Virus record (IMG/VR): IMGVR_UViG_3300010400_000023
Span: 1-59,330 of that record
DNA length: 59,330 nucleotides
DNA from: a virus
Lineage: Duplodnaviria; Caudoviricetes
Strand: one strand, 5' to 3'
Made by a program: the position numbers and the translations under genes. The notes under the pieces are model-generated. The model saw only the letters and a program-made list of their open reading frames with translations. It was not told where the DNA came from and searched no databases. Positions within the stretch are counted from its first letter, which is position 1, and each line of letters begins with the position of its first letter. Positions 1 through 35,128 of this stretch are shown in pieces.

Positions 1-18
1 CACCCACCCCCGTCGCCG
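1..18. repeat. Terminal direct repeat, copy 1 (CACCCACCCCCGTCGCCG)
   Basis: Identical to 59313-59330; indicates a circular assembly overlap. Confidence 0.9.
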
Positions 19-164
19 GCGTGCGGCGGCGTCAGTGAGTTTTTGTCATGTTTTCCTACGACTTAGCTAGTAAACAGACCGAGTTGTCTGGTTTTTCCAG
101 GTTTTCCTACGACCGTGGCGCTGAATACGTTAGCTTGCGGTTCTGCAACCCGGCCTACAGTGAG

Positions 165-527
165 ATGAGCCCCGTGAAAGAGTACGGACCGCCGCCGAAC
201 GACCTCGAAGGGTCGTCCATGACCCAGTTCGACCGCGCCGAATGGCTGCTGGGAATGATGCTCGATCGCTTCGAGCGAGCCATTGCGAAGCACGGTGTTA
301 CGGACGGACTGACGGTTGCCCACGCCAAGGAGGCGGCCAACCTGGCTCGCGCCGCGGCCACCATGGCGAGCGAGCGGAGACAGTTGGATAAGCAGGCTCG
401 CCGCGATGCCGCCGAGCTGCAGCTACCCCAGGTGATGGCGTACCTGCGGACCCTGCCGCCGGACAAGCGCCGACACGTCATCCGCGAGCTCCAGGACTTG
501 GACTCCGGTGGGAGCGTGCTGCGATGA
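165..527 (+). CDS. Hypothetical helical protein, possible terminase small subunit
   Basis: First gene of the rightward late operon; size and helical composition fit, but no diagnostic motif. Confidence 0.35.
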   Translation: MSPVKEYGPPPNDLEGSSMTQFDRAEWLLGMMLDRFERAIAKHGVTDGLTVAHAKEAANLARAAATMASERRQLDKQARRDAAELQLPQVMAYLRTLPPDKRRHVIRELQDLDSGGSVLR

Positions 528-832
528 TCATCAACGAGGCCACGATTGCCTACGTATTGAATCAGTTCGGCGTGGAGTCGCGCCCGGTTAAGTCGATCGG
601 CAACGTCGTGTTGATGCTTCCGATGCGGACTCAGGCGGTTGACCTCGGTAACGTTATTACTGCGGAGCAGGTCGTCGACCGGATCCAGGACGGCCGAGAC
701 CGGCTGTTCTCCGCGACGCTGCGGTACATGGCCGAGCACGACGACGACATCAGGGCTGTGCTCGATCGGATCGCGAAGGCGGCCGAGCGACGCGCCGAGA
801 TCGTCGACGTCGTCAAGGGGTTGCTGCGGTGA
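524..832 (+). CDS. Hypothetical protein (weak resemblance to MCP N-terminal part)
   Basis: ATGA-coupled ORF; TIAYVL..G resembles MCP TVAFIF..YG. Confidence 0.6.
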   Translation: MIINEATIAYVLNQFGVESRPVKSIGNVVLMLPMRTQAVDLGNVITAEQVVDRIQDGRDRLFSATLRYMAEHDDDIRAVLDRIAKAAERRAEIVDVVKGLLR

Positions 833-1086
833 CCGACGGTGAGTCAGACGACAATGGCGGTCGATGGTGTGCTGGGCATGGCCGCAGCCACGGCAACCTA
901 TACATCTGTCCGCTGTACAGCGAAGAGATCAAGACGAAGCTCGAGGGCTACAACGCCCAGTTTCGTAACGACCTTCGCGATCCGGCATGGTGTGCTGAGC
1001 AGCGTGCTAAGGGCGTCCCGGAGTGGGGCATCAGGGCCATGGGCGCATTCGCCGGTGTCACTCTGCGATCGGGCAAGCCGTCATGA
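829..1086 (+). CDS. Hypothetical protein with Cys/His motif
   Basis: GTGA/ATGA coupling on both sides; C..H...H....C. Confidence 0.6.
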   Translation: MTDGESDDNGGRWCAGHGRSHGNLYICPLYSEEIKTKLEGYNAQFRNDLRDPAWCAEQRAKGVPEWGIRAMGAFAGVTLRSGKPS

Positions 1087-1634
1087 CCTGGCGCGTAACC
1101 ACGATCATGAGCGGAGGCCAGACCGGCGCTGACCGCGGCGGCATGGACGCGGCGATCCTGCTCGACCTTGACTGGGGCGGCTGGATGCCGAAGGGGCGAC
1201 TCGCGGAGGACGGCATCATCCCGGAGATCTACGCTGCGCGGATGCACGAGGCGGCGCAGCCGAGCATGGCGCTGCGCACCCGGCTCAATATCCAGGACAG
1301 CGACGGGACGCTGCTGCTGTCGTTTCGCAGCGAGTTGGATGGCGGATCGGCGTTCACGGCCGAGGTCGCCGAGCGTACGAAGCGCCCGTACCTGCACCTC
1401 GTGCTGGCCGATGGCGCGCTGGTTCCGCCTGCCGTGCGCGACTCCGTGCTCGAGTGGATCGAGACGGCTCACATCAGCGTGCTCAACGTTGCCGGTCCGC
1501 GCGAGTCGAAGGAGCCGGGCATCCAGGCGGCGGTGCGCGATGCGCTGATTGCGATACTCGAGCCGGTGGTGGTCGAGGCGGAGCGAGCGGTGGTGGTGAC
1601 AGAACCGGAACCCGACGAACACGAGGCCACATGA
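1083..1634 (+). CDS. SLOG-superfamily protein (putative molybdenum carrier / YpsA-like)
   Basis: ISGGQTGADRG-like motif, GGWMPKG, RTRLNIQDSDGTL, LNVAGPRES. Confidence 0.85.
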   Translation: MTWRVTTIMSGGQTGADRGGMDAAILLDLDWGGWMPKGRLAEDGIIPEIYAARMHEAAQPSMALRTRLNIQDSDGTLLLSFRSELDGGSAFTAEVAERTKRPYLHLVLADGALVPPAVRDSVLEWIETAHISVLNVAGPRESKEPGIQAAVRDALIAILEPVVVEAERAVVVTEPEPDEHEAT

Positions 1635-2581
1635 ACGCGATCCCGATTCCGAGGTGTCCGGCGTGTCAGCAGCAGATGCGCGAGAGCCGCGCGACTGACG
1701 TCGTCGAGTGTCGCTGCGGCTTCGAAGTCGACCACGAAACGCTGTACGCCGTAGCTCCGTGTCGTGCACTTGCCGTTGCAGACGGTCGCATGTCAGCGCC
1801 GCGTCCGCGTGGCGCGCGAGGCATCCGCATCTCGGAGAACTTCGGCGAATTGGTCGAACACGCGTGGGATCAGCGATCGGTGAAGCCATCGGAGATGGGG
1901 TTGCCGGCGCGGCAAACGCTGCACGAGGCTGCGCGTAATATCGGTGCACGACTGGGACTCGAGTATCAGGGCGAGGGGAAGGGTCAGTATCTCGTGGTTC
2001 CGGTCACCGGCACGGCGCGTGGTCGGCGCCAACTCCAACGCCAGAAGATCTACGCGTGCGCGCCGCTGAGCTTGGCTCTCGCTGCCGTCGAGCAGATGGT
2101 GCAGGTGATCGCCATGACGCGCGGCCCCGGTAGCTGGTGGAGTACGGGTGGATGCGCCGGCTACTGCGGCGATGGCGATGCGCGAATCGGCTACCTCGAC
2201 GGTGTGCCGCATGTGTTCCTAGCGGCGTACTACTTCCATGACCCGGTTGCGCAGACGCCAGCCGGCCGCATGGAGGCCGTTCTCGAGATGGCGCAGCGTG
2301 GGATGATCAGCACAGAGGAAGCGAAGGCGCTACTCGAGGTGCCGGAGGTGCCCGCCGCCGACCCGCTCGATGCGGTTATCGACGGGGTAACGCTGCGTGC
2401 GTTGCTGGCGTACGACGAATGCGATCGACGTGAGACCATGAGCACCATCGTCCAGCGCAACCACACTCCCGCTCAGCGCGCTGCAGTCAGCGCCCACTGG
2501 TCCGCCGAACTGCGGCTCCGCGTGAAGGCTGATGCGGCGAAGGAGCGGAACCAGGTGACCTACTGCGAGGAGGACGATTGA
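1631..2581 (+). CDS. Zn-ribbon mosaic protein carrying a portal-derived segment and a shared C-terminal domain
   Basis: CPAC..CRC N-terminus; TPAGRMEAVLEMAQRGMISTEEA matches the portal; C-terminus paralogous to 32451-33689. Confidence 0.8.
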   Translation: MNAIPIPRCPACQQQMRESRATDVVECRCGFEVDHETLYAVAPCRALAVADGRMSAPRPRGARGIRISENFGELVEHAWDQRSVKPSEMGLPARQTLHEAARNIGARLGLEYQGEGKGQYLVVPVTGTARGRRQLQRQKIYACAPLSLALAAVEQMVQVIAMTRGPGSWWSTGGCAGYCGDGDARIGYLDGVPHVFLAAYYFHDPVAQTPAGRMEAVLEMAQRGMISTEEAKALLEVPEVPAADPLDAVIDGVTLRALLAYDECDRRETMSTIVQRNHTPAQRAAVSAHWSAELRLRVKADAAKERNQVTYCEEDD

Positions 2582-3126
2582 TGTCCGATCCGTACAGGGA
2601 GCTGTTCGTCGAGACGCCGGCGTCCGAACCGCGGACAGTCGATGACTTGTTCGAGGAAATCGCAAAGCACCCCAGGCCGAAGCCGATCCGCGTCTACATG
2701 CACCCGGCTACGTTCCGGCGGATCGTGATGTACACCAATGCTCGAGTCGATGGTGACGCTGGGTCGGAATCGATATGCTTGCACACCCCATACGGCGTGG
2801 CGCGGCTACATCCCGATCCGGACATCGGAGACCGCGACTACCTGCACTTTGAAGAGGCACCCATGAGCGAACTTGCTGCACTCAGCGCAGAATCTGGACT
2901 CACCGATCTGGAACGGATCCAGCTCCATTGCATCGCACGCCGTAGGCTGAACCAGCCGCAGCCGATGTACCGAATCAGCGACACGGAGTTTGACCTTCAT
3001 GTGTTTCGCTACCCCGCGGTCATTGAGCACGATGCTCGCGGAGCGCACGTTTATTACAGTTTCGGCGCGCTCATGGCAGCGATCTACTCCGGTGGCATCG
3101 GGGGTCTCGAGGTCATCGAGCCGTGA
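2581..3126 (+). CDS. Protein carrying a major-capsid-derived segment
   Basis: VYMHPATF...LHTPYG..LHPDPD aligns with MCP YYLNPVNF...LHTSVG..VYSDPD. Confidence 0.75.
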   Translation: MSDPYRELFVETPASEPRTVDDLFEEIAKHPRPKPIRVYMHPATFRRIVMYTNARVDGDAGSESICLHTPYGVARLHPDPDIGDRDYLHFEEAPMSELAALSAESGLTDLERIQLHCIARRRLNQPQPMYRISDTEFDLHVFRYPAVIEHDARGAHVYYSFGALMAAIYSGGIGGLEVIEP

Positions 3127-3578
3127 CCTCACCGGCCGACAACATCTCCGACGCTGAGCGCCGCTGCGCCGAGCTCGACGAGTGTCGCGCCGAGCGCTCG
3201 TGGGTCGTCAGGGTCCGCGGCGCCACTGGCGGCATGGTGCTCCATGACTATCGGTGCCCGGCTCATGGCGTCTTCGAGGCCGAGGTGTCGCGTGACGACG
3301 TGCCCGACGAAACGCCGTGCCCGGTAGAGCTCGACGCCGCCCCCGACGACCGCGAGCCGATGTATTGCGGTCTGCCCTCGCCATGGTCGCCGTCCGTCGT
3401 CTCCTGCCGCGTCCGCGCCGTCGAGACGACCCGCGGCAAGTCCGACAAGCCGCCGACCTCGATGGCGCTCACGACGCGTGACCTCGCCGAGGGCATGCCG
3501 ATGGCCGAGTGGAAGGCGAAGCGGGCGAAGCTGCATCGGGAACGGCGACGCGAGCAGATCAAGGCGGTGATGCGATGA
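3123..3578 (+). CDS. FmdB-like zinc-ribbon protein
   Basis: HDYRCPAHGVFE...CP...CG motif. Confidence 0.6.
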   Translation: MTSPADNISDAERRCAELDECRAERSWVVRVRGATGGMVLHDYRCPAHGVFEAEVSRDDVPDETPCPVELDAAPDDREPMYCGLPSPWSPSVVSCRVRAVETTRGKSDKPPTSMALTTRDLAEGMPMAEWKAKRAKLHRERRREQIKAVMR

Positions 3579-3931
3579 GCGTATACGACGCGGTATCAAC
3601 CGAGCTCCTCAAGCTGCGCATAGATACGCGCACCGACCAGATGACGCCCTCCGAGGTCAAGGCTTTCAACGCCGGCCGCAGCATCTCGTTCGCGCTGCCG
3701 TCGCGCGTTACAGTGTTGATCTACAAGTCGTCGCAACACGACGGGTGGAACACGCACGCCATGCTGGATGCGGTCGATGTCGTGACTGGTGAGCCGGGAT
3801 CGTTCGGTGCGATATATCAGCATCCGAGCGAGCCGACCCCGCGGGAGATCGCCGAGCACGTGATCGAGCAGCTCCGGCACGAGGTCGAGGAGCAGCTGGG
3901 CCTTGATCCGCATGGGAGGACGGAGCGATGA
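3575..3931 (+). CDS. Hypothetical protein
   Basis: ATGA-coupled ORF in operon. Confidence 0.6.
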   Translation: MSVYDAVSTELLKLRIDTRTDQMTPSEVKAFNAGRSISFALPSRVTVLIYKSSQHDGWNTHAMLDAVDVVTGEPGSFGAIYQHPSEPTPREIAEHVIEQLRHEVEEQLGLDPHGRTER

Positions 3932-4395
3932 GCGACCTCGGCAAGCTATTCGACCTCGAGTGCAACGCGGCGAATGAGTTGTTCGACCGCCGCGAGCGTG
4001 AGATGCTTGAGCACGGATACCGAAAGCCGGGCGTGGAGTCGGAGCGGATGACCGGCTTGGACGTCTGCGTCCACTCACCGCGCTGTCGCGTCATCGAGCG
4101 CTACCTCCGCGCGACCATCACCATCCCCGGCGGCTCCATCGAGGCCGGCATGCAGCGCACGCGCGGTGAGCCGCTGACACTGCTGCGCGCCGAACTGGCC
4201 AGGATTATCGCCGACGAGGTGCTGACGTTGAATGGCGATGACGTCGACGACGAATCAGCCGGTCGGCTCATCGACGCCATCGAGGAGCGCATCAGCGAGA
4301 CGTGGCCGGCGCGCGCGTGGTTCGTTGAGGTCTGGCAGGCAGACGAAGCCGTGTGCCAGGTCTACGCGCCGTACGGGATGCCGAGGCGCAGGTGA
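3928..4395 (+). CDS. Hypothetical protein
   Basis: ATGA-coupled ORF, GGAG RBS. Confidence 0.6.
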   Translation: MSDLGKLFDLECNAANELFDRREREMLEHGYRKPGVESERMTGLDVCVHSPRCRVIERYLRATITIPGGSIEAGMQRTRGEPLTLLRAELARIIADEVLTLNGDDVDDESAGRLIDAIEERISETWPARAWFVEVWQADEAVCQVYAPYGMPRRR

Positions 4396-4580
4396 AGCTC
4401 GACGATGTATTCTGTTTTGACTGCGCGCTGTATCAGACGACGTACGGTGTCGGATGTTTGCGCTGTACGCCCGCCGCGGCGCGAGTAGCGCGTGATGAGC
4501 AGATCCAGAAGGTCATTCGCGATGCCCAGCGCAATGCAGTCATGTGCGAGGCACAGCAACGGAAGCGTGGCCAGTCATGA
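4392..4580 (+). CDS. Small Zn-finger protein
   Basis: CFDC...CLRC; GTGA coupling. Confidence 0.55.
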   Translation: MKLDDVFCFDCALYQTTYGVGCLRCTPAAARVARDEQIQKVIRDAQRNAVMCEAQQRKRGQS

Positions 4581-4966
4581 CCTCCGACACCGTTACCGTC
4601 AACGCGCTCTACAAGGACCTCTACCCCGCGGCTGGCACGCGCATCAAGCAATGGGTCGTCGAGATGGGGCGCGAATCTGCCTGGGAGCGTGAGACGTGCC
4701 CGCGCGTCGATGTACCCTCGCACAACGACAACTGCGGCGGCGGATGCCGCAACGTCGGCTCCACGCAGTGGATGCACCTCAACCATGATAGCTGCTACGA
4801 CTGCAACGATCTTCAGGATGCTACGCGTGAGCGCCCGGACGTCGTCGCATGGCTTGCTGAACGCGCGAAGCGACCGCCGATCACCACTGACCGCGAAGCG
4901 CTGAGCGAAGAGATTGCGCCGGACTGGTCGCTGACCGAGCATCCGATGTTCCGGAGGCTGCGATGA
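4577..4966 (+). CDS. Cys-rich hypothetical protein with MCP N-arm-like start
   Basis: MTSDTVTVNALYKDLYP start; several Cys/His. Confidence 0.6.
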   Translation: MTSDTVTVNALYKDLYPAAGTRIKQWVVEMGRESAWERETCPRVDVPSHNDNCGGGCRNVGSTQWMHLNHDSCYDCNDLQDATRERPDVVAWLAERAKRPPITTDREALSEEIAPDWSLTEHPMFRRLR

Positions 4967-5343
4967 ACCCGTTCCGCGAGCTGTTCGTCGAGGTGCCGCG
5001 TCAGTTGCTTGAGGCTGCCGTCGCGGAAGCGAAGTCGCGCCGCAGGCCGACTGGCGCGTCGTATACGTACGGTCCCAGTTCAGTCATCGAGCGGCTTCGC
5101 AAGCTGCCGTGGGCCATCATCGCGGCTGATTTGTTCGGATGGACCAGTTGTTCGGTCACTCGATCTGCCTACACCGACGACATCATCATCGAAGGCATGT
5201 CGGCATGTCGGCATCGTCAGCGCGTCGAGGTATCGGAGATTGCGGTCATGGCGGCACGAGAGATCCGCGAGATCGTCGACGCGATCGTGCGCGAGGTCGA
5301 TGCGCAGCGCGCGTGCTACTGCGTCCAGGCGGCGCGCCCATGA
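4963..5343 (+). CDS. Hypothetical protein sharing N-terminal P(F/Y)RELFVE.P motif with 2581-3126
   Basis: MNPFRELFVEVP vs MSDPYRELFVETP. Confidence 0.65.
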   Translation: MNPFRELFVEVPRQLLEAAVAEAKSRRRPTGASYTYGPSSVIERLRKLPWAIIAADLFGWTSCSVTRSAYTDDIIIEGMSACRHRQRVEVSEIAVMAAREIREIVDAIVREVDAQRACYCVQAARP

Positions 5344-5888
5344 CTCTCGCCATCCGGCCCGCGAACCTCACCGATCCGACTGAGCGGCCGTTCATCGTCG
5401 ACGGCTGGATCAACTCGTTCCGCACCGCGCATGCCGCGGGCATCGTGTCTATGCGCCGGTGGCGCAGCGTCATGTGGGAGACGGTCGAAGACATCCTCGG
5501 TCAGCCTTACGTGTCGACCCTTGTCGCAGCCGACGACGCAGACCCGACGGCGCTCTATGGCTTCCTGGCGTACGAAGGCCCGAACCCGAACAACCGACCG
5601 AGCTGGCGACCGAACTCGAGCGCCTCACCCGACAGCTTGCCGTACGTGCACTACGCGTACACGAAGGAGTACCGGCGGCGTGGGCGCAAGACGTTTGGCG
5701 GCGCCGGCGTGATGACGTCGCTCCTTGCCGCGGCAGGCATCGATCCGGATCTGCCGTTCGGCTTCGCCTGCAAGACACCGCCGGTGGTCCACATGATGGA
5801 CGCCGGCAAGCTCCGCGGCGCCCGATGGGACCCGCTGCGCATCCGCTACGAACGCGACTACCGAGAATACGAGAGGAAACAGGTATGA
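5340..5888 (+). CDS. GNAT-like acetyltransferase-fold protein
   Basis: IRPA..D..FI..W, LYGFLA, VHYAYTK.YRRRG.G pattern. Confidence 0.6.
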   Translation: MTLAIRPANLTDPTERPFIVDGWINSFRTAHAAGIVSMRRWRSVMWETVEDILGQPYVSTLVAADDADPTALYGFLAYEGPNPNNRPSWRPNSSASPDSLPYVHYAYTKEYRRRGRKTFGGAGVMTSLLAAAGIDPDLPFGFACKTPPVVHMMDAGKLRGARWDPLRIRYERDYREYERKQV

Positions 5889-6211
5889 GCGAAGAGAAGA
5901 AAGTCCCGGCATGGATGATCGGACCCGGCGGCGCGAAGCCGATCCGCGTCCAGAAGCTCCGGTTCCGCACCGGCATCACGGTCGACCTTCCGAAGAGCGC
6001 CGCGGCGAAGTACGTCGCTGACGACTCGCTGCCGCAGGATGGTCAGCCCGCGCCCGAGGTGGAGCGGACCAACATCCCGCGCTACAAGATCTACTACCTG
6101 CCGTGGCTCGGACAGTATGCCGTGGCGTACTACCCGGCCGCGTCGAAGGAGCAGTTCGGACGGTCGGCTTGGATTCCGCGCGAATGGGCGCAGGCGGATC
6201 CAGCGGAATGA
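5885..6211 (+). CDS. Hypothetical protein
   Basis: Coupled ORF with AGGA RBS. Confidence 0.6.
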   Translation: MSEEKKVPAWMIGPGGAKPIRVQKLRFRTGITVDLPKSAAAKYVADDSLPQDGQPAPEVERTNIPRYKIYYLPWLGQYAVAYYPAASKEQFGRSAWIPREWAQADPAE

Positions 6212-6480
6212 ACCTGCCGCGGCACATCAGCTTGACGATCCAGCACAACCCGCACCGGGGCGTCTACGTGCCGATCGATAAGTGGATCGAGGACTACCTG
6301 CTCTCGGCGACCAGTGGTACCGGATTCACCGCCGACGAGGTCATTGCGCCCGCCGACCATGCGGCCATCCTCGCGACGGGCGAGGTCTGGATTATCAGCT
6401 GGTGTCCCGATACGCCAGTCGGCTCGTGCTGCGTCGTCGCCGCAACGCTCGATCGCGCGCTGGAGTTCGCGAACCAATGA
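6208..6480 (+). CDS. Hypothetical protein
   Basis: ATGA-coupled ORF. Confidence 0.6.
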   Translation: MNLPRHISLTIQHNPHRGVYVPIDKWIEDYLLSATSGTGFTADEVIAPADHAAILATGEVWIISWCPDTPVGSCCVVAATLDRALEFANQ

Positions 6481-6595
6481 CCCTGCATGCCTCAGGCACC
6501 CCTATGCCGCCCTGACCGCTCCATGGGACAGGGAGAAATCCGAGCGCCGCGTCCTCTCACCGGATGCGGCGTGGGCGGCTGAGATCCGCGAGGCG

Positions 6596-8194
6596 GTGCT
6601 TGCCGACTGTCATCCGTTTCAGCGGGACGCCGTCTCGGCGCCACACCGCTATTTCACGTGGCTCGTGGGGCGCGGCGGCGGCAAGACCACCTCCTACAAG
6701 GCGAAGTACCTCATCGGTCTGTCGTCGATCCCCAAGGGCAAGTTCCTGTTTGCCGCGCCGACGCGCGAGATGGCCGCTGACCTGCTCTGGGACCCGCTCA
6801 AGGACAGCTGCGAGCGCCTCGGCATCGAGGCCAGCTGGAACGAGACGCGCAAGGTCTGCACGTTCAAGCGCACCGGAGCGAAGCTCAAGCTCGTCGGCGC
6901 CGACGACAAGAAGGAGATGGGCAAGCAACGCGGTCAGCCGTTTGACGGCGTTGGCGTTGACGAGGTCGCCGAGTTCTTGCCGCACCTGATCGAGTGGTTC
7001 GTGGACCGCATCATCGCACCGCGTCTCGGCGAGCGCGGCGGATGGCTCGGCCTCGCCAGTACCCCGGGTCACGTGCTCCGCGGGTTGTTCTACGAGGCCA
7101 CGCGCCCCGGCTCGGGGCTGCATGTCCCGTTCTCCGAGGCCAGCAAGCACCCGGGATGGGGCGGCTGGGTGTCGCATTCGTGGGGGCTACGGCAAGTCGT
7201 CGAGCTCCCCGACGCGACTCGGAAGTACCCCGCCATCGTGGCGAACTGGCTCGAAGCGCTGCGCATCAAGGCGCTGCGCCAGTGGGGCGACGATAACCCC
7301 ATTTGGCTCCGCGAGTACGAGGGCCGGTGGGCGGCGGATAACGCGCTCATGGTGTTCCGGTACCTGCCGCACCGGGACGGCGCGCCGTGGAACCAGTGGG
7401 ACCCGCCGCGACGCGGGACGATGCAGATCGCTGTGCTGCCGGCCGGTCGCTCGGACTGGCTGTACGTCATCGCGATCGACGAGGGCTTTGCCGATCCATT
7501 TGCTTGCAATGCGTTTGCATTTAGCCCGACGGATCCGACGAGGACGATCTATCACATCTACGGCATGGAGCAGGGCAAGCGTCGCGGCGATGACGTCGAC
7601 AAGCGCCCCGAGGCGGAGCGCGAGAAGATGTACGCGCGCCCGGTGGCGCAGTTGCTCATCGGTGACGCGCTTGACCCGTCGAAGCCCAGTGGGCTCATCG
7701 GCGCGATCGGCACGTGGCCGATCGGCATGGAGGGCGACTGCGGTGAGGCGTTGCTCCTTGAGCTCGCCAACGTCTACGGCATCCGCGTCGAGCGGTTCGA
7801 CCGAACGACGAAGTACAAACTCACGGCGATCGAGGTGGTAAACGGAGACCTCGCCGACGGCAGGATCAAGATCCTGAAAGGCTCCGCTCTCGAGGTGCAG
7901 CTCGGCGAACTGCAGTATGCCGAGGACGACTTCGGCAACCTGAAAGAGAATAAGGCGCAGGCGAACCACTCGAGTGATACTCTTGTAATTGCTCGTAAAA
8001 TCATTGGTAAGCTGCTATCCGCCGGGACTGTCGACGAGCCGTCCGATCCAGCAGCGGCGAAGCGTGTGGCGACGGAACTGGCGCGGCTCAAGGCGATCGA
8101 AGATCCGCCCGATCCCGAGGACAGCTCGCACTCACCCGGATTCGCAGGTATGCTCGTCGGAGGAGACTACTCGGACCCATGGAGTCAGATATGA
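6596..8194 (+). CDS. terL: Terminase large subunit (start uncertain; frame open from 6314)
   Basis: HPFQ motif, Walker A GRGGGKTT, Walker B GVGVDE, ASTPG coupling motif, nuclease AIDEGFADP and NHSSD. Confidence 0.92.
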   Translation: MLADCHPFQRDAVSAPHRYFTWLVGRGGGKTTSYKAKYLIGLSSIPKGKFLFAAPTREMAADLLWDPLKDSCERLGIEASWNETRKVCTFKRTGAKLKLVGADDKKEMGKQRGQPFDGVGVDEVAEFLPHLIEWFVDRIIAPRLGERGGWLGLASTPGHVLRGLFYEATRPGSGLHVPFSEASKHPGWGGWVSHSWGLRQVVELPDATRKYPAIVANWLEALRIKALRQWGDDNPIWLREYEGRWAADNALMVFRYLPHRDGAPWNQWDPPRRGTMQIAVLPAGRSDWLYVIAIDEGFADPFACNAFAFSPTDPTRTIYHIYGMEQGKRRGDDVDKRPEAEREKMYARPVAQLLIGDALDPSKPSGLIGAIGTWPIGMEGDCGEALLLELANVYGIRVERFDRTTKYKLTAIEVVNGDLADGRIKILKGSALEVQLGELQYAEDDFGNLKENKAQANHSSDTLVIARKIIGKLLSAGTVDEPSDPAAAKRVATELARLKAIEDPPDPEDSSHSPGFAGMLVGGDYSDPWSQI

Positions 8195-8538
8195 TGAAGC
8201 CGGCGCTGGACGCCAACGAGCTACTTGTTCCGGCTCCGGCGGACATCACGCCAGCTGCCGTCGCGCAGTTGATGCTCTGGCGGATCGCCGACTGCATCAA
8301 GATGCATCAGTTCGACATCGCCGTGATGCTGACGAATTCATATTGCGCGTTGCTGGGAACCGGAGCGATCGGTGCTACCGCAAGAGAGATCTCGATAGCC
8401 GAACTCTGGCATTGGTGCAGGCTTGCGTTGGAAGGTGGCCGGGCCGGGGTTCGAGACATCGAGAGTTGGTGGGAAGAGCAAGGCTTCAACAACGACGCAG
8501 CGGCTGTCATTCGCGCTTACCGTACGAAGACCCGATGA
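8191..8538 (+). CDS. Hypothetical protein
   Basis: ATGA-coupled to terL; lower GC. Confidence 0.55.
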   Translation: MMKPALDANELLVPAPADITPAAVAQLMLWRIADCIKMHQFDIAVMLTNSYCALLGTGAIGATAREISIAELWHWCRLALEGGRAGVRDIESWWEEQGFNNDAAAVIRAYRTKTR

Positions 8539-8846
8539 CCCTCAAGCCCTCCGATCTCTTGACCATGATCGCTACGCACGCGCCCAAGCTGCGTGCGTCC
8601 GGCGTCAAGTCGCTGACCATCGAGGGCATCTCAATGGAACTCCTGCCGGCCGAGCCGCCTCCGGCTCCGCGGCCGACAGCCAAGGAGATCGCCGCAGCGC
8701 AGGCGGCGTCCACAATCCCGCTTGATCCGCTCGACGACCCGATGAGCTACCCCGGCGGCGTGGTACCGCGCTTCGCCGCAGAGACGCCCGAGCCGCGCAC
8801 TCGTGGCCGGCGCAAGCCTCCAACCGATGAACACGAAGATGACTAA
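8535..8846 (+). CDS. Hypothetical protein between terminase and portal
   Basis: ATGA-coupled; LRASGVKSLTIEGISMEL followed by a Pro-rich tail. Confidence 0.65.
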   Translation: MTLKPSDLLTMIATHAPKLRASGVKSLTIEGISMELLPAEPPPAPRPTAKEIAAAQAASTIPLDPLDDPMSYPGGVVPRFAAETPEPRTRGRRKPPTDEHEDD

Positions 8847-8894
8847 CCAACCCTGCACAGCCGGAGAGATCAATCGGCACCCAAGTGGTGTCCG

Positions 8895-10739
8895 ATGGCG
8901 ACCGACCGCGAGAAACGTCTCTGGTACAACCTACCCAAGAACGAAGCGCACGCTGCGATTCTGGCGTACGTGCAGGGCGTCTCGTCGCGCCAGTCGAGGC
9001 TGTACGAGAAGTTCCTGCGCCTCGACGGGATGTATGACCCAAACTCGGTCCGCACCGAGCTGTACGGTCGGCCGGGCACCGACACCCTCGGGCTCGTCAC
9101 TGAAAACGTAGTCGCGTCCAACGTCGATACGGTGACCGCGGCGATCGCCGCGACCGACGTGCGCGCGCGCTTCATGACCGACGACGGCGACTGGTCAACG
9201 CAACGGACCGCGCGTCACCTCGAGTGGTATGCGGAGGCGCTGTCGAAACAGCTCGACATGGACACGCTATGCCAGCGGGCGTTCAAGTCAGCGGCGATCA
9301 AGGGCACCGGGCTGATTCACGTCTACGCCGACGGCGGAAACAACGTGCGTGCCGAGCAGGTTCCGGTTGACGAGTGCATCGTCGACGAGTCCGAGTCGCA
9401 CAGCGCCCGGCCGCGCCAGATGCACCGCGTGCACCTCGTCGACCGTGATGAATTGAAGATGATGTACCCCGGGCACGACGAGGACATCGACGGCGCGCAG
9501 TACGGCGGTCGTGGTCTGATGAGGCTCTGGAACATCAACAGCCGCAGCGACAACAACGAAGTCGTCGTGATCCACAGCTGGCGGTTGCCGGTTGGTAAGC
9601 GCCCGGGCCGCGAAGTCGTTTCGCTCGACGGCACGACGCTCCTCGATCGGAAGTACGAGAAGACGTTCTTCCCGTTCGCCCGCTTCGTGTGGAGCGAGCC
9701 AGATCAGGGCTGGTACGGCATCGGCGGCGCCGAACGCATCGCCGGTCATCAGCGCGCGCTCAACCGGCGCAACTGGCAGATCGATCGGCTGCTACAGCAA
9801 AACGCCGTGCCGACGACGTACGTCCGGCGCGCGGACGCGAACCTCCGTGCGCAGGTCACCAACGAACTCGGGACAATCGCCGTGGTCAACGGGGAGATCC
9901 CGGTGACCGTGCATCAGCCGGTCGTGAACAAGGAGACGTACTCGTCTCGTGATCAGCTCAAGGCGTCGGCGTTTCAGGAGTTTGGCGTCTCAATGCTGGC
10001 CGCGCAGTCGACGAAGCCTGCAGGCCTCGACTCCGGCGTGGCGCTCCGCGAGTACCGCGACAGCACGACGCAACGGTTTGCGATGCAAGAGAAGGGCTAC
10101 GAAAAGCTCAAGCTTGACGCGATTTGGTTGGCGATCGACGTCTGCAAGGACCTCGGCGCCAAGGCGCCGCAGATGATGCGGCGCACGAAGTTCGGAGCGC
10201 GTAAGCTGCCGTGGTCCAAGGTGGATATGGGCGATGTCCGCGTGCAGATCGCCGCGGCGTCGACGATGTCACGCACACCGGCCGGTCGCATGCAGACCGT
10301 GCTCGAGTGGGCACAGGCCGGAGTGATTTCGCAGGACGAGGCTCGACGCCTGATGCGGCATCCAGACCTTGAGCGGTCGATGTCCATCTACACCGCGGCG
10401 CTCGAAGCGGTGGAGCACGCCATCGAAGAGATCGAGGACGGCGCAGTCCTGATGCCGGAGCCGTTTGACAACCTGCAGATGATCGTCTGGCGCGGCCAGA
10501 TGGAGTACCTGAAGATCTCCACCGAGGACGCCCCCGAAGAGGTTCTTGAGGCGTTGCGCCAGTATGTCGTGCAGGCAGCCTGGATGATCGCGCAGCAGGA
10601 CGCACCCGCCGCGAACGAGAACGCCGGCGCAGCGGCCCCAGCGCAGCCTGAGATGCCGCCGCTGCCCGGCGCTCCACCCGTCAACATGCCCGCCGTTGCC
10701 GCGCTGTCACCGCAGTCGATGCAGCTCCGGGCTGTCTAG
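8895..10739 (+). CDS. Portal protein
   Basis: 614 aa, position between terL and scaffold/MCP; GTG, FFPF..F.W, GWYG.G, FGVS motifs. Confidence 0.88.
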   Translation: MATDREKRLWYNLPKNEAHAAILAYVQGVSSRQSRLYEKFLRLDGMYDPNSVRTELYGRPGTDTLGLVTENVVASNVDTVTAAIAATDVRARFMTDDGDWSTQRTARHLEWYAEALSKQLDMDTLCQRAFKSAAIKGTGLIHVYADGGNNVRAEQVPVDECIVDESESHSARPRQMHRVHLVDRDELKMMYPGHDEDIDGAQYGGRGLMRLWNINSRSDNNEVVVIHSWRLPVGKRPGREVVSLDGTTLLDRKYEKTFFPFARFVWSEPDQGWYGIGGAERIAGHQRALNRRNWQIDRLLQQNAVPTTYVRRADANLRAQVTNELGTIAVVNGEIPVTVHQPVVNKETYSSRDQLKASAFQEFGVSMLAAQSTKPAGLDSGVALREYRDSTTQRFAMQEKGYEKLKLDAIWLAIDVCKDLGAKAPQMMRRTKFGARKLPWSKVDMGDVRVQIAAASTMSRTPAGRMQTVLEWAQAGVISQDEARRLMRHPDLERSMSIYTAALEAVEHAIEEIEDGAVLMPEPFDNLQMIVWRGQMEYLKISTEDAPEEVLEALRQYVVQAAWMIAQQDAPAANENAGAAAPAQPEMPPLPGAPPVNMPAVAALSPQSMQLRAV

Positions 10740-10788: not shown

Positions 10789-11985
10789 ATGGCTGACGAC
10801 GTCGCAGGCGACCATGGGACCGAGACGGAGGGTCGACCGACCCCCGGCCGGTCGCGCCCGGACAAGGAAAGCGTGCTCGCGGCATTGGCGCGGCACAAGT
10901 CGGGCGCTGCGGAGTCGGTGCCCGACGCTCACGAGGACGAGCCGGATCTACCCAGCGGAGACGTTCACGAGGACGATGAAGTCGAGGACGCTCCGAAGCC
11001 GAAGACCAAAAAGCCGAAGGAGCCGGAGCCCGACGAGGATGAGCCCGCCGACCCGGATCCGGACGCTGAAGAGCCGGACGAGGATGTCGACGTCGACGCC
11101 GACGCCGATGAGCCCGAGCCCGAACCTGAGCCGGAGGCGAAGCCCGATCCAGAACTCGAGCGGCGTGCCGCGCAGCTGCGCCGGCAGGAGACCCGGCTCC
11201 GCGCCAAGATCGAATCGGAGCGCACCAAGCTTGAGCGCGAGCGCGCCGAGCTGGCCGCCGACCGCGCCAAGGTCGACGAGTTCGCCAAGCTCCGCTCGCG
11301 AGCGAGGTTCGACCCTACCGGCGTCCTCCGTGCGCTCGGCCTGTCCGACGACGACCTGGAACCAGCCGCGAGGCACATTTACGCGCAGACCAAGGAAGCG
11401 GCCAAGGATCCCAAGAACCGTGATGCCGCCGATCGGCTCATGAGGGAGCGCGAGCTGCAGCATCGCATCGACGAGCAGCAGAAGCGCCTCGACGAGCGCG
11501 ACGCGCGCGACAAGCAGGCGGCCGAGCGCGAAGCCGAGCAGCGTGCGGCGGTGAAGTACATCACTACTGTCAGCAAGGCAGCGAAGCCGGGCACGCTCGC
11601 GGCGCACTACCTCGCCAAGGGCGGCAAGGTGGCCGACAAGACGATGATGCGATTCGCGTCGATCGCGCAGGACCTTGCCGAAGACGGCGAACTGCCCGAT
11701 CACTCCGACGTACTCGAGGAGTACGAACGCCAGCGGCGCGAGGAGCTCGAAGACGACGGCATCGACATCGCCGCGCTGCTCAAGAGGCCCGCAGCGAAGC
11801 CCGCAGCTGCGAAGCCTGTCGCCGGCAAGCCCGTAACGGCGCCGGCAAAGCCCGCGGTCCCGAAGCCCAAGGCACCTGCCGCAGCCGCACCGGTGGCCCC
11901 CAAGCCCAAGTTCAAGGACGCCGACGAGCGCAACTCGTCGATCGTCGACATGCTCGCTGCCCAACGCGCGAAGGGCAAGCTGTAA
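10789..11985 (+). CDS. Capsid scaffolding protein
   Basis: Acidic/Pro N-terminus, coiled coil, basic C-terminal helix; directly before MCP. Confidence 0.75.
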   Translation: MADDVAGDHGTETEGRPTPGRSRPDKESVLAALARHKSGAAESVPDAHEDEPDLPSGDVHEDDEVEDAPKPKTKKPKEPEPDEDEPADPDPDAEEPDEDVDVDADADEPEPEPEPEAKPDPELERRAAQLRRQETRLRAKIESERTKLERERAELAADRAKVDEFAKLRSRARFDPTGVLRALGLSDDDLEPAARHIYAQTKEAAKDPKNRDAADRLMRERELQHRIDEQQKRLDERDARDKQAAEREAEQRAAVKYITTVSKAAKPGTLAAHYLAKGGKVADKTMMRFASIAQDLAEDGELPDHSDVLEEYERQRREELEDDGIDIAALLKRPAAKPAAAKPVAGKPVTAPAKPAVPKPKAPAAAAPVAPKPKFKDADERNSSIVDMLAAQRAKGKL

Positions 11986-12128: not shown

Positions 12129-13325
12129 GTGGCTTCAGCTTCAACTCTCACTACAGTCGCATTCATTTTCAAGAAGACGTACGGCGACGGCATCGGCGAT
12201 GCCGCGTCGCGCGACCATCCGTTCTTCTACAACATCCGCAAGGTCAACAAGTTCCGCGGCGAGAGCTTCAAGTACAGCGTCAAGTACGGCAATCCGCAGG
12301 GCATCGGCGCGACGATCGCGCTCGCTCAGGCCGGCGCCGCATCGAGCAAGGGTCTGCAGTTCGAGGCGGTCCGCTTCAAGAAGTTCGGCCTCATCACGCT
12401 CGACGGTGAGTCGCTCATGGCCAGCGATGGCGATGACGGCGCGCTCGTCGAGCTGGTCACGACCGAGTCCGACGGCATCCTCGCGGAGCTCGTCGACTCG
12501 CTGGCGTACGACCTGTACCGCGACGGCACGGGCAAGCGTGGCAAGCGCCTCAGCGCATCGACGAACGTCATCACCCTGACGGTCGCCGACGACGCCCGTA
12601 ACTTCAAGGTCGGCATGACCGTGATGGCGTCTCCGAACGCCAACGGCTCATCGCCCCGCGCCGGTACCACCACGGTGGCCGGCGTCGACGAAGACGCGGG
12701 TACGGTCACGCTGACCTCGGCAGCGGCGATCACGTCGTTCGCCGATGCCGACTTCTTGTTCCGCAGCGGCGACCCGACGACCTGCGTTGAGGGTCTCGAG
12801 GTCTGCACGCCGCTCACCGCCCCGACGCCCGGCGACTCGTTCCGCACCAAAGATCGCAGCGTCGATGCGCCTCGCCTCGCCGGGTCGCGCGTCAACAACC
12901 TCAACAACGTCATCGAGGAGAACGCCGGTGATGTCGCGGTCAAGCTGAACCAGCGCGGCCGGAAGGCGCGTGAATACTACCTGAACCCCGTCAACTTCTT
13001 CCAGGTCGTCAAGCGCCAGGGCGCCAAGGTCGAGTACCAGGGCGGCGGCGGTACGGCGGATATCTTCTTCGAGACGTTCAGCCTCCACACGTCAGTCGGG
13101 ACCCTCAAGGTCTACTCCGATCCGGACTGCCCCATCGACCGCGGTCGCGTGGTCAACCCCGATGACCAGTACCTCCGCATCCTCGGAGAGTACCCGCACG
13201 TGATCATGGACGATGGTCAGCGCTCGCTGCGCCAGACCGCCGACGACGGCATCGAAGTTCGATGCCGTGCCATGGGCAATCTCATCCAGAAAAACACGGC
13301 GTCGCAGGGCGTCCACTCGATCTGA
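12129..13325 (+). CDS. Major capsid protein
   Basis: 398 aa, strong codon bias, GAGGA RBS, LAYDLYRDGTG and DPDCP motifs, position. Confidence 0.85.
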   Translation: MASASTLTTVAFIFKKTYGDGIGDAASRDHPFFYNIRKVNKFRGESFKYSVKYGNPQGIGATIALAQAGAASSKGLQFEAVRFKKFGLITLDGESLMASDGDDGALVELVTTESDGILAELVDSLAYDLYRDGTGKRGKRLSASTNVITLTVADDARNFKVGMTVMASPNANGSSPRAGTTTVAGVDEDAGTVTLTSAAAITSFADADFLFRSGDPTTCVEGLEVCTPLTAPTPGDSFRTKDRSVDAPRLAGSRVNNLNNVIEENAGDVAVKLNQRGRKAREYYLNPVNFFQVVKRQGAKVEYQGGGGTADIFFETFSLHTSVGTLKVYSDPDCPIDRGRVVNPDDQYLRILGEYPHVIMDDGQRSLRQTADDGIEVRCRAMGNLIQKNTASQGVHSI

Positions 13326-13334
13326 GGTGATGCC

Positions 13335-13709
13335 ATGGCGGAGTCAAATTTCTCACAGCTACTGGCATCAGAGCCGACGACCCGGGCGGTCATCGTCCGG
13401 GCACAGGGCAACACCACGAGCACGCCGGTCAAGGTGCTCGGAAACGGCATCACGATCACGCGGACCGGCGTGGGAGTGTGGCGTCTGACGTTCGGCTACT
13501 TCAACGGCCGCCCGGTCGGCGTCGTCGGTTGGAACTTCGAGGACGCGACGATGAGCGTGCCCAAGGGGTTCACGCTTACGTCGCAGGCATGGGCGTCGGC
13601 GACGAACTCGATCGACTTGTCGATCTGGAACTCGTCGTTCGCGGCGGCAGACCTCGCGGTGACGACGTTTCTGAACCTCGTGATCTTGTTCAAGGCAACT
13701 GGAGTCTGA
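13335..13709 (+). CDS. Virion-associated beta-rich protein (decoration-like)
   Basis: Follows MCP; ITRTGVGVWRLTF motif; GAGGT RBS. Confidence 0.55.
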   Translation: MAESNFSQLLASEPTTRAVIVRAQGNTTSTPVKVLGNGITITRTGVGVWRLTFGYFNGRPVGVVGWNFEDATMSVPKGFTLTSQAWASATNSIDLSIWNSSFAAADLAVTTFLNLVILFKATGV

Positions 13710-14426
13710 GTGCCTCGAATCTACCGACTCGACGACCTCCGACTGCGCTGTCAGCGCCGGTCCAACAAGGAGGGAGATCCGTCGATCTCCATCCCGGAGT
13801 GGAACGCGTTGATCAGCGAGCAGTACGGAGATCTGTATTCCGAGGTCGAGAAGACCGGGCTGCGGTACTTCGAGTCGGCTTTTGCTTTTTCTGCGAACGG
13901 CGCCGCGAGCTACGCGGTTCCGGTCGACCATCTCGCGACGCTCGGCATCGATCGGATCACTGATTCGGTCGGCAGCCGAGTGACACTGGACGAGATGATG
14001 AGCCCGGAGCGTACGCGCTGGGCGGGACAGGTCGGCGACGCGCAGAGCTACGCGATCGTCGGTCAGCTCATCTATCTGTTCCCCAAGCCGTCGTCGGGCA
14101 ACTACGAGATGCTGTACATGCCGCAAGCGCCGGATCTGTCAACGGCCGCTGACAGCACGAGCGTCGATGTCGTGCAGGCCGACGGCGAAGCGTTCCTGAT
14201 CTGGGGCGTCGTTGTCAAGGCACTGTCGAAGTCGGAGTCTGATGTCCGCACGGCGATGGCCGAGCGCGAAGCAGCGCGCGTGCGCTTCGTCGACTGGGCA
14301 ATCCTGCGCGCGTTCGTGCAGCCGCGCCGGCCGATCTATCGGTTGTCCCGGAACGAAGATGACGGCAGTGGCGGGTGCGGCGGCGTCGACGACCCCGGCG
14401 GCTGGTGGAGCGGCAACCGCTCATGA
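13710..14426 (+). CDS. Head-tail adaptor-like protein
   Basis: Position; IYLFPKP..YEMLY.P pattern. Confidence 0.65.
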   Translation: MPRIYRLDDLRLRCQRRSNKEGDPSISIPEWNALISEQYGDLYSEVEKTGLRYFESAFAFSANGAASYAVPVDHLATLGIDRITDSVGSRVTLDEMMSPERTRWAGQVGDAQSYAIVGQLIYLFPKPSSGNYEMLYMPQAPDLSTAADSTSVDVVQADGEAFLIWGVVVKALSKSESDVRTAMAEREAARVRFVDWAILRAFVQPRRPIYRLSRNEDDGSGGCGGVDDPGGWWSGNRS

Positions 14427-32450: not shown

Positions 32451-33689
32451 TCAGTCATCGTCCACCTGTACCATCACGGTCAGCTTTGGCTTGGCCGTCT
32501 CGGCTACGCGAGCGCGGAGTTGCGCCGACCAGTGAGCCGACACCGCGGCACGCTGGGCCGGAGTGAATTCTGAAGACATGCGCGGAAACCACGAATCGCA
32601 TCCCTCTCGACGACAGACCTCATCGCGAAAAATCAGCGCCTTTAACACCTCGCCGTCGATGACTACGTCGAGCGGGTCAGCCGGCACCGCGCACGCCGCG
32701 CATCTCCACGGATGCCGGATCACGCCATCGACCGGCGTGGTCGCCGAGCACTGCGCTCCGTCGCGGATGCCCTGGCAGCGGAGTCTGGACAGGGGCGGCC
32801 CCATCTCGTCCATCAGCTTGCGCAGCCGTTGCCCGTATTCTGTCGCCTGGCTCTCGGTGATGCGGTCGTCGGTGAAGGGGATCATCTGGGCCGGAGGCGG
32901 CATCGGTGCCTTGAGCATCGCTTCGGCGCGGGAAACGCCGAACACTTCGTAAGCCTCGCGTTTGAGTAGGTCACACTCCGCCAGTAACGACGATGGAATC
33001 GGCTCCATGGTGCGAAACAGTTCGCGAGCCTGATCGTCGCATCGCTTCAGCATCGTGTCGACCGCGGCCTCGGTCTTCTCGCGCAGCTGCGCCACGAACG
33101 CGTCGCTTTGCCGCAGCGCCTCGCGGTCGACCTGCACCGGCTGGTAGCGCTTGGGATTCCGGGCTGTAGGCTCCACAAACGGCACCCACGTCCCGAGGTG
33201 CTCGCGCTGGAAGTCGGGCCGATTACGTACCTGCCAAGTCGATGCGTCGCTGTCGTTCGCCACATGGTCCGTGTAGACCACGCAGACCTTCCCACGCTCG
33301 ATGCCGTTCCGATATAGAACGATCTTCTGCTTGAGACCGAGATGATCGCGGACGTCGGAAGCCATGTCACGGCAGTAACTACTCAAAACCGACGGCCCGC
33401 CGTCGATGTAGAGCGTAACGCCTCCCATCAACTGGCATTGCGCGAGCGCTTCGAGTAGCCCGCGCATTGTCCGGCCGGTACGGCGCGGCGGCGCAGGCGA
33501 CAGCGCGGCGTACTCTGCCCACGGCCGCAGCCCCATGCGCTGGCGGTAGGACTCGGCGATGGCGATCACGTCGGTCGGCGGCGAGTCCTCGGGGAAGTAG
33601 TTCCCGATCGTTACGCCGCACCCGTGGCAGTTGTAGAGGTCGTTCGCGCTCGGTCGGATGTCAGCGCTCTGGCAGTGGGGGCAGTTCAT
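32451..33689 (-). CDS. Zn-ribbon mosaic protein with terminase-, capsid- and portal-like segments
   Basis: AGGAG RBS; CPHC/CHGC; RRTGRT, FQREHLGTW, DREAL..S, LKREAYEVFGVS; shared C-terminal domain. Confidence 0.8.
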   Translation of the reverse strand: MNCPHCQSADIRPSANDLYNCHGCGVTIGNYFPEDSPPTDVIAIAESYRQRMGLRPWAEYAALSPAPPRRTGRTMRGLLEALAQCQLMGGVTLYIDGGPSVLSSYCRDMASDVRDHLGLKQKIVLYRNGIERGKVCVVYTDHVANDSDASTWQVRNRPDFQREHLGTWVPFVEPTARNPKRYQPVQVDREALRQSDAFVAQLREKTEAAVDTMLKRCDDQARELFRTMEPIPSSLLAECDLLKREAYEVFGVSRAEAMLKAPMPPPAQMIPFTDDRITESQATEYGQRLRKLMDEMGPPLSRLRCQGIRDGAQCSATTPVDGVIRHPWRCAACAVPADPLDVVIDGEVLKALIFRDEVCRREGCDSWFPRMSSEFTPAQRAAVSAHWSAQLRARVAETAKPKLTVMVQVDDD

Positions 33690-33854: not shown

Positions 33855-34952
33855 CTATCGTTTCGATATCTTGCGACGAGTTTCGGTCGCTGTCGGAGCG
33901 TCATTCGTCTCATTGGTATCTCGTGATCCACGGTCGTCTTGCACACGGGCTGCACACGGCTTCCCGCCGGGCAATCGGCTCACGGCTTCGGCGAGCGTGT
34001 CCTCGGACAGGCGACCGTAGACGAGATCGACCATCTTGGTGCTCGTGTGGCCGAGCAGGCGTGCCACCACGGCGCTGTCCGTCTTCTGGTTCTTGAGCCA
34101 ACTGGCGAACGTCCGGCGCAAGTCGTTGGGCGTCACCCTGGGGACCTTGGCGAGATCGGCTGCACGCGCCAGATCGCGGCGGACGTTGCGCCATCGAGTG
34201 ACGATCGGCCCGAGCAAGCGCTTCGGCGCCCCCGCGGCCAGGGCTTCGAGTAGGCGGGGCGCGATCGGTACGATACGCCACCGCGATGTGCGCTTGGTAC
34301 CTGGGACGCGCATCTTGGCCCGTCCAAAGTCGATATGCTCCCACCTGATGCGCTCGACCTCGCCGAGCGACAGACCGCCGAACATCGCAAGCATCACCCA
34401 CAGGCGGCGGCGAACGGCGATCTTCGCGAGGAAGCGCTCGGCCTGATGCTCGTCGAGCCAGACCTCCTTAGGCCGGTAGACCACGCGAACCTTGGGCACC
34501 ATGTCCTCGATCGACCCAGACCACAGACCACGCTTGCGGGCTTCGGCAAGCGCCCGACGCAGCACCACCAGCTCCTTGTGGATGGTGCCGTTGGCGGCGG
34601 TTTCGCTCTGGCGTGTCGCGATGTAGCGCATCACGGCATCGCGGGTGAGCGTGCCGACCTCGGTGTCGCCGCCGATCAGCCGGGTGAGGTGATGCCCCTT
34701 TTGGGCGTACGCTGTTGCGGTGGCTGCGGCGCGCTCGATGGCCACTACCGCGAGCATGTTGCCGATCGCATCCCTCAGCGTGTGGTGCGAATGCGTGGCC
34801 GGATCGGCCGATCCCAGTTCGAGCTTGCGGAGCTTGGCGCGAGCGACTTGCTGATCGCGCGTGCGGAGCGACTGCCGCCGAGCACGGCCTCGGATGTCAG
34901 TCCAGTAGCCGTGCCACGTGCCGCCTGGCTTGCGTTGATAGATTCTTCCCAC
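33855..34952 (-). CDS. int: Tyrosine recombinase (integrase)
   Basis: Arm-binding N-terminus, SAM-like core, GTK, NDLRRTFASW, LLGH, catalytic Y (DLVY); next to attP. Confidence 0.9.
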   Translation of the reverse strand: MGRIYQRKPGGTWHGYWTDIRGRARRQSLRTRDQQVARAKLRKLELGSADPATHSHHTLRDAIGNMLAVVAIERAAATATAYAQKGHHLTRLIGGDTEVGTLTRDAVMRYIATRQSETAANGTIHKELVVLRRALAEARKRGLWSGSIEDMVPKVRVVYRPKEVWLDEHQAERFLAKIAVRRRLWVMLAMFGGLSLGEVERIRWEHIDFGRAKMRVPGTKRTSRWRIVPIAPRLLEALAAGAPKRLLGPIVTRWRNVRRDLARAADLAKVPRVTPNDLRRTFASWLKNQKTDSAVVARLLGHTSTKMVDLVYGRLSEDTLAEAVSRLPGGKPCAARVQDDRGSRDTNETNDAPTATETRRKISKR

Positions 34953-35128
34953 GGTGCCTCTGTTCTGGATGCGAGATATCGAGCAAGCGCCTCCTCGGGG
35001 ACCCGCAACAGGCTGCCGACGCGCACGTGAACACACGAGCGGGCCACGCGGTACGCGGTCGCACGCGAACATCCGAGACGCGCGGCGATGTCTGCGGCGG
35101 TGAGGTAGACGATGTGCGGACGGGTCAC
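34775..35128 (-). CDS. xis: Excisionase-like HTH protein
   Basis: YLTAADIAARLGCSRATAYR...RVG..LRV. Confidence 0.8.
   Translation of the reverse strand: MTRPHIVYLTAADIAARLGCSRATAYRVARSCVHVRVGSLLRVPEEALARYLASRTEAPWEESINASQAARGTATGLTSEAVLGGSRSARAISKSLAPSSASSNWDRPIRPRIRTTR

Follow-up and report, generated by a model that had tools for sequence, protein, structure and literature searches.

A phage accessory protein with a middle module probably derived from the A-domain of the major capsid protein, encoded next to a portal-fragment gene

Within the linear IMG/VR record IMGVR_UViG_3300010400_000023 (59,330 bp), taken whole and referred to below as the window, the gene at 2581–3126 on the plus strand encodes P0001, an accessory protein of 181 aa. 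P0001 is a three-part mosaic composed of a start motif, an A-domain-like module and a C-terminal domain. Sequence statistics, and in part predicted structure, make it very probable that the middle module descended from the A-domain of an HK97-fold major capsid protein (MCP). The module spans residues of about 14–95 (nt 2620–2865, plus strand), its limits being set by the structural alignments of the ESM Atlas and by the BLASTP alignments of greatest length; these ~80 residues would come from the A-domain of the phage's own MCP family, leaving behind the N-arm, E-loop, spine helix and P-domain. As the preferred mechanism we propose mimicry of the capsomer interface, to which we assign a probability of roughly 0.4.

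The initial annotation had paired nt 2692–2823 (P0001 residues 38–81) with nt 12975–13127 of the MCP gene (residues 283–333), counting 15 of the 44 aligned pairs as identical, with a single gap of seven residues. Both coordinates and letters proved correct, and a hand count on the translations reproduced the figures. BLASTP of the single pair gave 16/50 identities between P0001 39–81 and MCP 284–333 (32.3 bits, E 4e-6), a score reached by none of 1000 shuffles of P0001 (best, 25.0), and tblastn of P0001 against the whole window recovered the MCP at E 3.9e-4. Profile search, proposed by the initial annotation as a check, also returned the capsid: using an alignment of 32 MCP relatives, 29–88% identical to the window MCP, hhalign matched P0001 33–88 (nt 2677–2844, plus strand, enclosing the segment noted initially) to MCP 278–341 (nt 12960–13151, plus strand) over 56 columns with a probability of 85.7% and E 5.5e-6. 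A local repeat of this comparison scored 45.1, against 25.0 for the best of 300 shuffles and 14.5 for the reversed sequence, and the negative control, the product of gene 4963–5343, aligned with the MCP family at a probability of 0.5%.

The match extends across the MCP family. A hidden Markov model (HMM) of the MCP, made from 121 stored relatives chosen by a length of 350–420 aa and with the window MCP included twice, ranked the P0001 open reading frame (ORF) second after the MCP among the 878 six-frame ORFs of the window (E 5.8e-4; next ORF, 0.098). At E ≤ 10, 119 of the 121 family proteins aligned with P0001, 109 of the 121 in the same register, with a best score of 40.0 and a median of 32.3 bits. 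As the resident MCP itself scores at the median, the module is not a recent copy of that gene. The segment LHTPYG of P0001 is closer to the family consensus than to the MCP of its own phage, identity to the consensus amounts to 19/55 core columns, and the invariant family residues P287, V301, G324 and D331 are retained. Comparison of the window with itself gave no DNA-level similarity in register between the P0001 and MCP genes. A MAFFT register that placed the P0001 start motif on MCP residues ~214–232 was dropped, as it was unsupported by BLASTP and HMMER.

The identity of the partner gene (12129–13325, plus strand) as an HK97-fold, SU10-like MCP was confirmed by its match to phrog_14242, 'major head protein' (E 2.7e-10), and by its AlphaFold model, which has a predicted local distance difference test score (pLDDT) of 85.8 and finds the SU10 capsid (7z48; E 7.4e-12) and HK97 (2ft1; E 6.6e-8) as its best PDB matches, with 260 chains at E ≤ 0.001. 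The model contains a helix at 262–275, a strand at 282–285, a helix at 287–297 and strands at 317–321, 324–330, 338–342 and 347–351, so placed that the stretch matched by P0001 sits between P-domain strands after the spine helix 103–130 and the long P-domain strand 374–387. According to two published descriptions, the A-domain, or axial domain, has a 5-stranded sheet (PMC5701804) and two main helices that form the main interface between facet subunits (PMC8346489). From the model and this published topology we infer that the matched stretch is the A-domain, in agreement with the initial annotation.

For P0001 itself, the AlphaFold model (pLDDT 48.2) predicts helices at 20–28 and 42–52 and strands at 36–40, 66–69, 72–78 and 86–92, in an order (helix, strand, helix, three strands) that parallels the MCP elements H262–275, E282–285, H287–297, E317–321, E324–330 and E338–351. 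An ESM Atlas model of P0001 (pLDDT 0.55) has six neighbours listed for residues 14–94, all six being capsid or encapsulin clusters, with SU10_MCP first and template modelling (TM) scores, by query, of 0.53–0.66. Residues 97–181 of the same model found no capsid in ten listed rows, all with TM < 0.5. In sequence searches of the PDB, neither P0001 nor the MCP profile gave a match. The MCP spine helix 103–130 and the E-loop strands 75–92 have no counterpart in P0001 when the models are compared, and P0001, which aligns to MCP 278–341 and at most to about 240–356, is not a full HK97 MCP.

Judged on its sequence features, namely a GGAGG followed by ATG, coupling, a coding G+C pattern and a conserved C-terminal family, the gene looks real and functional. 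The Shine-Dalgarno-like GAGGAGGA (2567–2574, plus strand) lies within the end of the upstream gene, about 6–7 nt 5' of the ATG at 2581–2583, which overlaps the upstream TGA (2579–2581) as TGATG. This overlap at 2579–2583 and the ribosome-binding-like sequence bear out the translational coupling with the upstream gene that had been suggested initially. At its other end, the P0001 stop overlaps the next GTG start as GTGA (3123–3126). The G+C contents of codon positions 1, 2 and 3 (GC1, GC2, GC3) are 0.65, 0.43 and 0.71 in the coding frame; the two alternative frames have GC3 values of 0.65 and 0.44. The gene is placed 5' of the terminase gene (6314–8194), outside the head-module position after portal and scaffold. 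Of two sequencing runs, one is the probable source and the other contains scraps only, which left no variant copy of the locus for comparison; no RNA run is listed as containing it.

The first of the three parts, the motif DPYRELFVETP (residues 3–13; nt 2587–2619, plus strand), is common to P0001 and the start of gene 4963–5343 (plus strand; 126 aa), which shares just this motif with P0001 and has no MCP similarity. BLASTP aligned the two motifs with 8/11 identities (E 5e-4), a regular-expression search found the motif in these two of the 878 ORFs only, and its DNA pattern occurred twice against 0.03 expected. A 30-nt stretch is 83% identical between 2587–2619 and 4966–4998 (repeat D20), directly after the start Met in both genes, and the motif may mark a joint left by recombination or serve both proteins as an N-terminal tag. 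T4 uses protease-cleaved capsid-targeting tags; the motif might conceivably be a tag of this kind, but the gene between portal and MCP resembles a plain scaffold and has no protease family match.

The third part, residues 97–181 (nt 2869–3123, plus strand), belongs to a small unnamed family of mostly stand-alone proteins of 93–101 aa. An exhaustive phmmer search with P0001 gave five matches at E ≤ 1e-3, three of them real C-terminal relatives, and found relatives for residues 97–173 only (E 1.1e-10 to 9.3e-5). One match, P0005, a repetitive, eukaryote-like protein of 2613 aa with six matching stretches, was set aside as low-complexity noise after reading. Profile search extended the family to 10 members (P0001, P0004, P0006, P0007 and P0129–P0134), eight of which are 93–101 aa long, while one of 144 aa carries an unrelated extension and P0001 has 181 aa; the MCP-like part of P0001 is therefore an added N-terminal extension. 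A four-sequence alignment holds 21 invariant columns, and P0001 conforms to the invariant pattern I-x2-H-x-IAR-x-RL-x-Q ... YR ... D-x2-FD ... FG ... G ... EP.

The A-domain's two helices and sheet pack subunits around the capsomer axis, and the module is therefore proposed to retain this packing activity, and this one activity only. It would bind the A-domains of the phage MCP or of further P0001 copies and, once bound, might tether or deliver the C-terminal domain to the MCP or to capsomers, or else cap capsomers during head assembly. An autonomous A-domain is feasible, as the family 4 A-domain encapsulins show (PMC8346489). A complex prediction for the MCP and P0001 scored 0.01 against a mark of 0.32.

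The coupled upstream gene (1631–2581, plus strand; 316 aa from ATG 1631, the most likely start) combines a Zn-ribbon-like start, a portal-like segment and a C-terminal domain. Its residues 205–243 (nt 2243–2359, plus strand) match residues 457–495 of the portal protein (nt 10263–10379) with 18/35 identities by BLASTP (E 1e-7); hhalign against eight portals gave a probability of 96% and E 4.1e-9, and tblastn matched the portal gene in 8/8 loci holding one. These three methods agree with the earlier description of the neighbour as a portal-fragment gene. Residues 243–316 match the C-terminus of a 412-aa protein (32451–33689, minus strand) with 42/77 identities (E 7e-17). In the all-against-all BLASTP of the window, no non-self pair reaches E ≤ 1e-3 apart from the two that this gene forms with the portal and with the 412-aa protein. 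By these sequence matches, the upstream gene is itself a patchwork. The 412-aa protein, which adjoins the integrase gene, also starts with a Zn-ribbon-like motif, and the 74-residue domain that it shares with the upstream gene is 55% identical. We count the second head-protein piece in the coupled neighbour in favour of capsomer-interface mimicry, where the portal helix-hairpin of that gene would act likewise at the portal.

A number of results weigh against a capsid-derived module that still binds. Those concerning the match itself bear also on chance or convergence, by which a common strand–helix–strand pattern with a Pro, a Gly turn and a DPD loop would account for the similarity in place of descent from the MCP. 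The match is short, covering 44–56 columns at 32–35% identity; its window-wide E-values are just 4e-4 to 6e-4, and in the all-against-all BLASTP of the 878 six-frame ORFs the P0001/MCP pair stayed above E 1e-3, on which account we regard the plain pairwise similarity as real but modest. Neither Pfam nor PHROGs yielded a capsid family for P0001. The fold comparison proposed initially came out divided: the ESM Atlas neighbours were all capsids or encapsulins, but the poor AlphaFold model (pLDDT 48) matched no capsid, with no Foldseek match at E ≤ 0.001 in BFVD or the PDB and, in the wide VIA structure search, a best Z of 4.3, the 50 rows shown containing no capsid. The fold evidence for P0001 comes from one low-confidence model. 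Chance or convergence nevertheless seems decidedly improbable to us, given that shuffled sequences fell far under the real scores, that the reversed sequence and gene 4963 failed as negative controls should, that the same register recurs through most of the family, and that an independent, structure-based neighbour list contains capsid-fold clusters only.

The remaining points concern function and bear on the main and strong rival, a recombination relic, which we consider possible though doubtful. Mosaic phage genes arise by illegitimate recombination, and a piece of MCP could have been captured in frame in this way before the gene for the C-terminal domain; it would have no capsid role and would persist as a decaying or neutral spacer, carried along since the useful C-terminal domain is translated from a start that precedes it. 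P0001 is a singleton, alone among the 10 family members in having the MCP-like extension, and none of the MCPs tested is nearer to it than the others. It matches the MCP consensus in 8/15 columns conserved at ≥90% and in 11/40 others (Fisher p 0.07), a split that, on sequence, fits uniform decay as well as retained function, and retention can be described as about equal in conserved and variable MCP columns (0.53 versus 0.43; p 0.07). The GC3 of 0.71 is lower than the 0.81–0.87 of the head genes. There is no orthologue of the N-terminal module, and dN/dS (the ratio of non-synonymous to synonymous substitution rates) and purifying selection are therefore not measurable. Other joint-like duplications occur at gene starts, both D20 and a second repeat, D9, in which two gene starts (49334–49377 and 49567–49610), at a distance of 233 nt, have 44 nt in common with 89% identity, ATG included; and the neighbouring gene is a patchwork, as described above. 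A mere relic accords less well with an open frame, an element order and four invariant family residues that persist at about 32–35% identity, with an ESM Atlas model that is still capsid-like over residues 14–94, and with a head-protein piece in each of two adjacent coupled genes, which is less expected from independent accidents. The locus resembles recombination mosaics in its in-frame joining, at gene boundaries or close to them, of pieces that have paralogues in other parts of the genome; unlike in the usual mosaics, the captured pieces here are conserved cores of head proteins, and they stand in two adjacent coupled genes. Should the module be a relic, it would plainly record how a gene fragment was captured in frame.

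The surroundings of the gene pair raise a further alternative. Upstream, a gene for a circularly permuted YpsA (cpYpsA) SLOG-domain protein (1023–1634, plus strand; PF12694, Pfam E 2.6e-46; no PADLOC match) ends in an ATGA overlap with ATG 1631, so that the pair follows directly on a nucleotide-binding fold. The SLOG fold is linked to conflict systems, and earlier Avs families sense portal and terminase. An isolated A-domain and a portal piece could imitate the MCP and portal surfaces read by host pattern-recognition proteins, binding to these sensors without triggering them or blunting their response, and genes 1631–2581 and 2581–3126 would form a structural-protein mimic pair in an anti-defence island behind the SLOG gene, acting as decoys or blockers of portal- and A-domain-reading receptors, a phage counter-measure that would be assembled from parts of the sensed proteins themselves. 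This alternative is kept open because a recent preprint (bioRxiv 10.64898/2026.01.04.697583) describes an immune sensor that reads the face of the A-domain by which capsomers form, a finding to which a decoy would provide a direct link. P0001 and 11 neighbouring proteins had no PADLOC match, a weak test given that PADLOC holds defence and not anti-defence models; no MCP- or portal-fragment decoy was found described in the literature, and a sensor-binding fragment could as easily activate the sensor. We consider both the decoy role and the island of which it would be part quite unlikely.

Capsomer-interface mimicry, the reading that we prefer, has partial precedents. The known systems are of two kinds: truncated A-domains that archaea and bacteria have as proteins in their own right, and MCP relatives of full length by which satellites redirect assembly. 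The former are the family 4 'A-domain encapsulins' (PF08967, DUF1884; crystal structure 2PK8), proteins of about 100 aa whose free-standing A-domains are proposed to form facets (PMC8346489). They correspond to the HK97 A-domain and lack the N-arm, E-loop and P-domain, as the P0001 module probably does; according to the same paper, they stand free, downstream of enzymes, in thermophilic archaea and a few Bacteroidetes, whereas the P0001 module occurs in a phage and is fused to another domain. Its genome has an integrase, terminase, portal and MCP, and its neighbours are small proteins, not a thermophile enzyme operon. P0001 gave no match to PF08967 at E ≤ 0.1; its sequence relatives are instead the SU10-like MCPs of the family to which the resident MCP belongs, and it is therefore an independent truncation.

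The satellite precedent is the SaPIbov5 protein Ccm, which is homologous to the capsid protein and redirects the shape of the helper capsid (PMC8569155). Ccm and P0001 are each a diverged MCP relative encoded apart from the MCP gene, and Ccm is a precedent for acting on assembly. Whereas Ccm is a capsid-protein homologue in a satellite, P0001 holds an A-domain-sized piece only and, in contrast to a satellite without capsid genes, its genome encodes a terminase, portal, scaffold, MCP and SU10-type adaptor of its own. SU10-type MCPs (PDB 7z48 and others) provide both the best structural match of the window MCP and the first Atlas neighbour of P0001 14–94; P0001 covers roughly one quarter of an MCP of this type and could not form a shell subunit. 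Pfam SU10_MCP was not matched at E ≤ 0.1, either by P0001 or by the MCP. We found no A-domain-only derivative inside a phage in the literature; here one is fused to another domain and lies beside a portal-piece gene. If the module still binds A-domains, it would be a simple natural handle on capsomer interfaces and an example of phages turning parts of their own shell into tools.

Searches for orthologues of the N-terminal module found none in 5.8 billion clustered proteins (a word-indexed search that returned only P0001 itself) and none in 1.84 billion representatives covered by the exhaustive phmmer search. Neither blastn of 1400–4400 nor tblastn of P0001 and P0004 gave a match in 50,697 phage records, none of the 186 stretches from a pattern scan with alignment A1 in viral contigs was confirmed, and the same alignment was absent from 401/401 genomes of the family of G001. 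The terminase query reached distant viral loci only and nothing in genome contigs. With MCP queries, four short metagenome contigs and three contigs of metagenome-assembled genomes (MAGs) were recovered, none of them reaching the accessory region, and P0001 was not found in any of the three MAG genomes. A single metagenomic case with no orthologues gives the P0001 finding limited weight.

The record has a CheckV completeness of 66% and a G+C content of 62–69%, and its head module follows the accessory region. The large terminase gene (6314–8194, plus strand; phrog_2, E 7.9e-19) is followed by the portal gene (8895–10739, plus strand; phrog_156, E 3.7e-17), which contains the stretch copied in the upstream gene, and by a gene for a highly charged, scaffold-like protein (10789–11985, plus strand) located between portal and MCP, with no match in the families searched, protease families included. 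An SU10-type adaptor is encoded at 13710–14426 (PF24175, E 5.3e-12). A tyrosine integrase gene lies at 33855–35258 on the minus strand, and this high-GC soil phage, SU10-like in its MCP and adaptor (12129–14426), is therefore probably temperate. The nearest MCPs, at 84–88% identity, come from metagenomes, one being labelled Microbacterium sp., and MCP relatives at 50–86% identity occur on the MAG contigs L010, L011 and L012, labelled Microbacterium, Deltaproteobacteria and Gemmatimonadota. A promoter and terminator scan of window positions 1–9000 gave no signal above that of shuffled sequence. Just 5' of the terminase gene, two long ORFs with odd codon-position G+C and no family match overlap at 5139–5888 and 5459–6211 (plus strand; region 5139–6211), and one of them may encode the small terminase.
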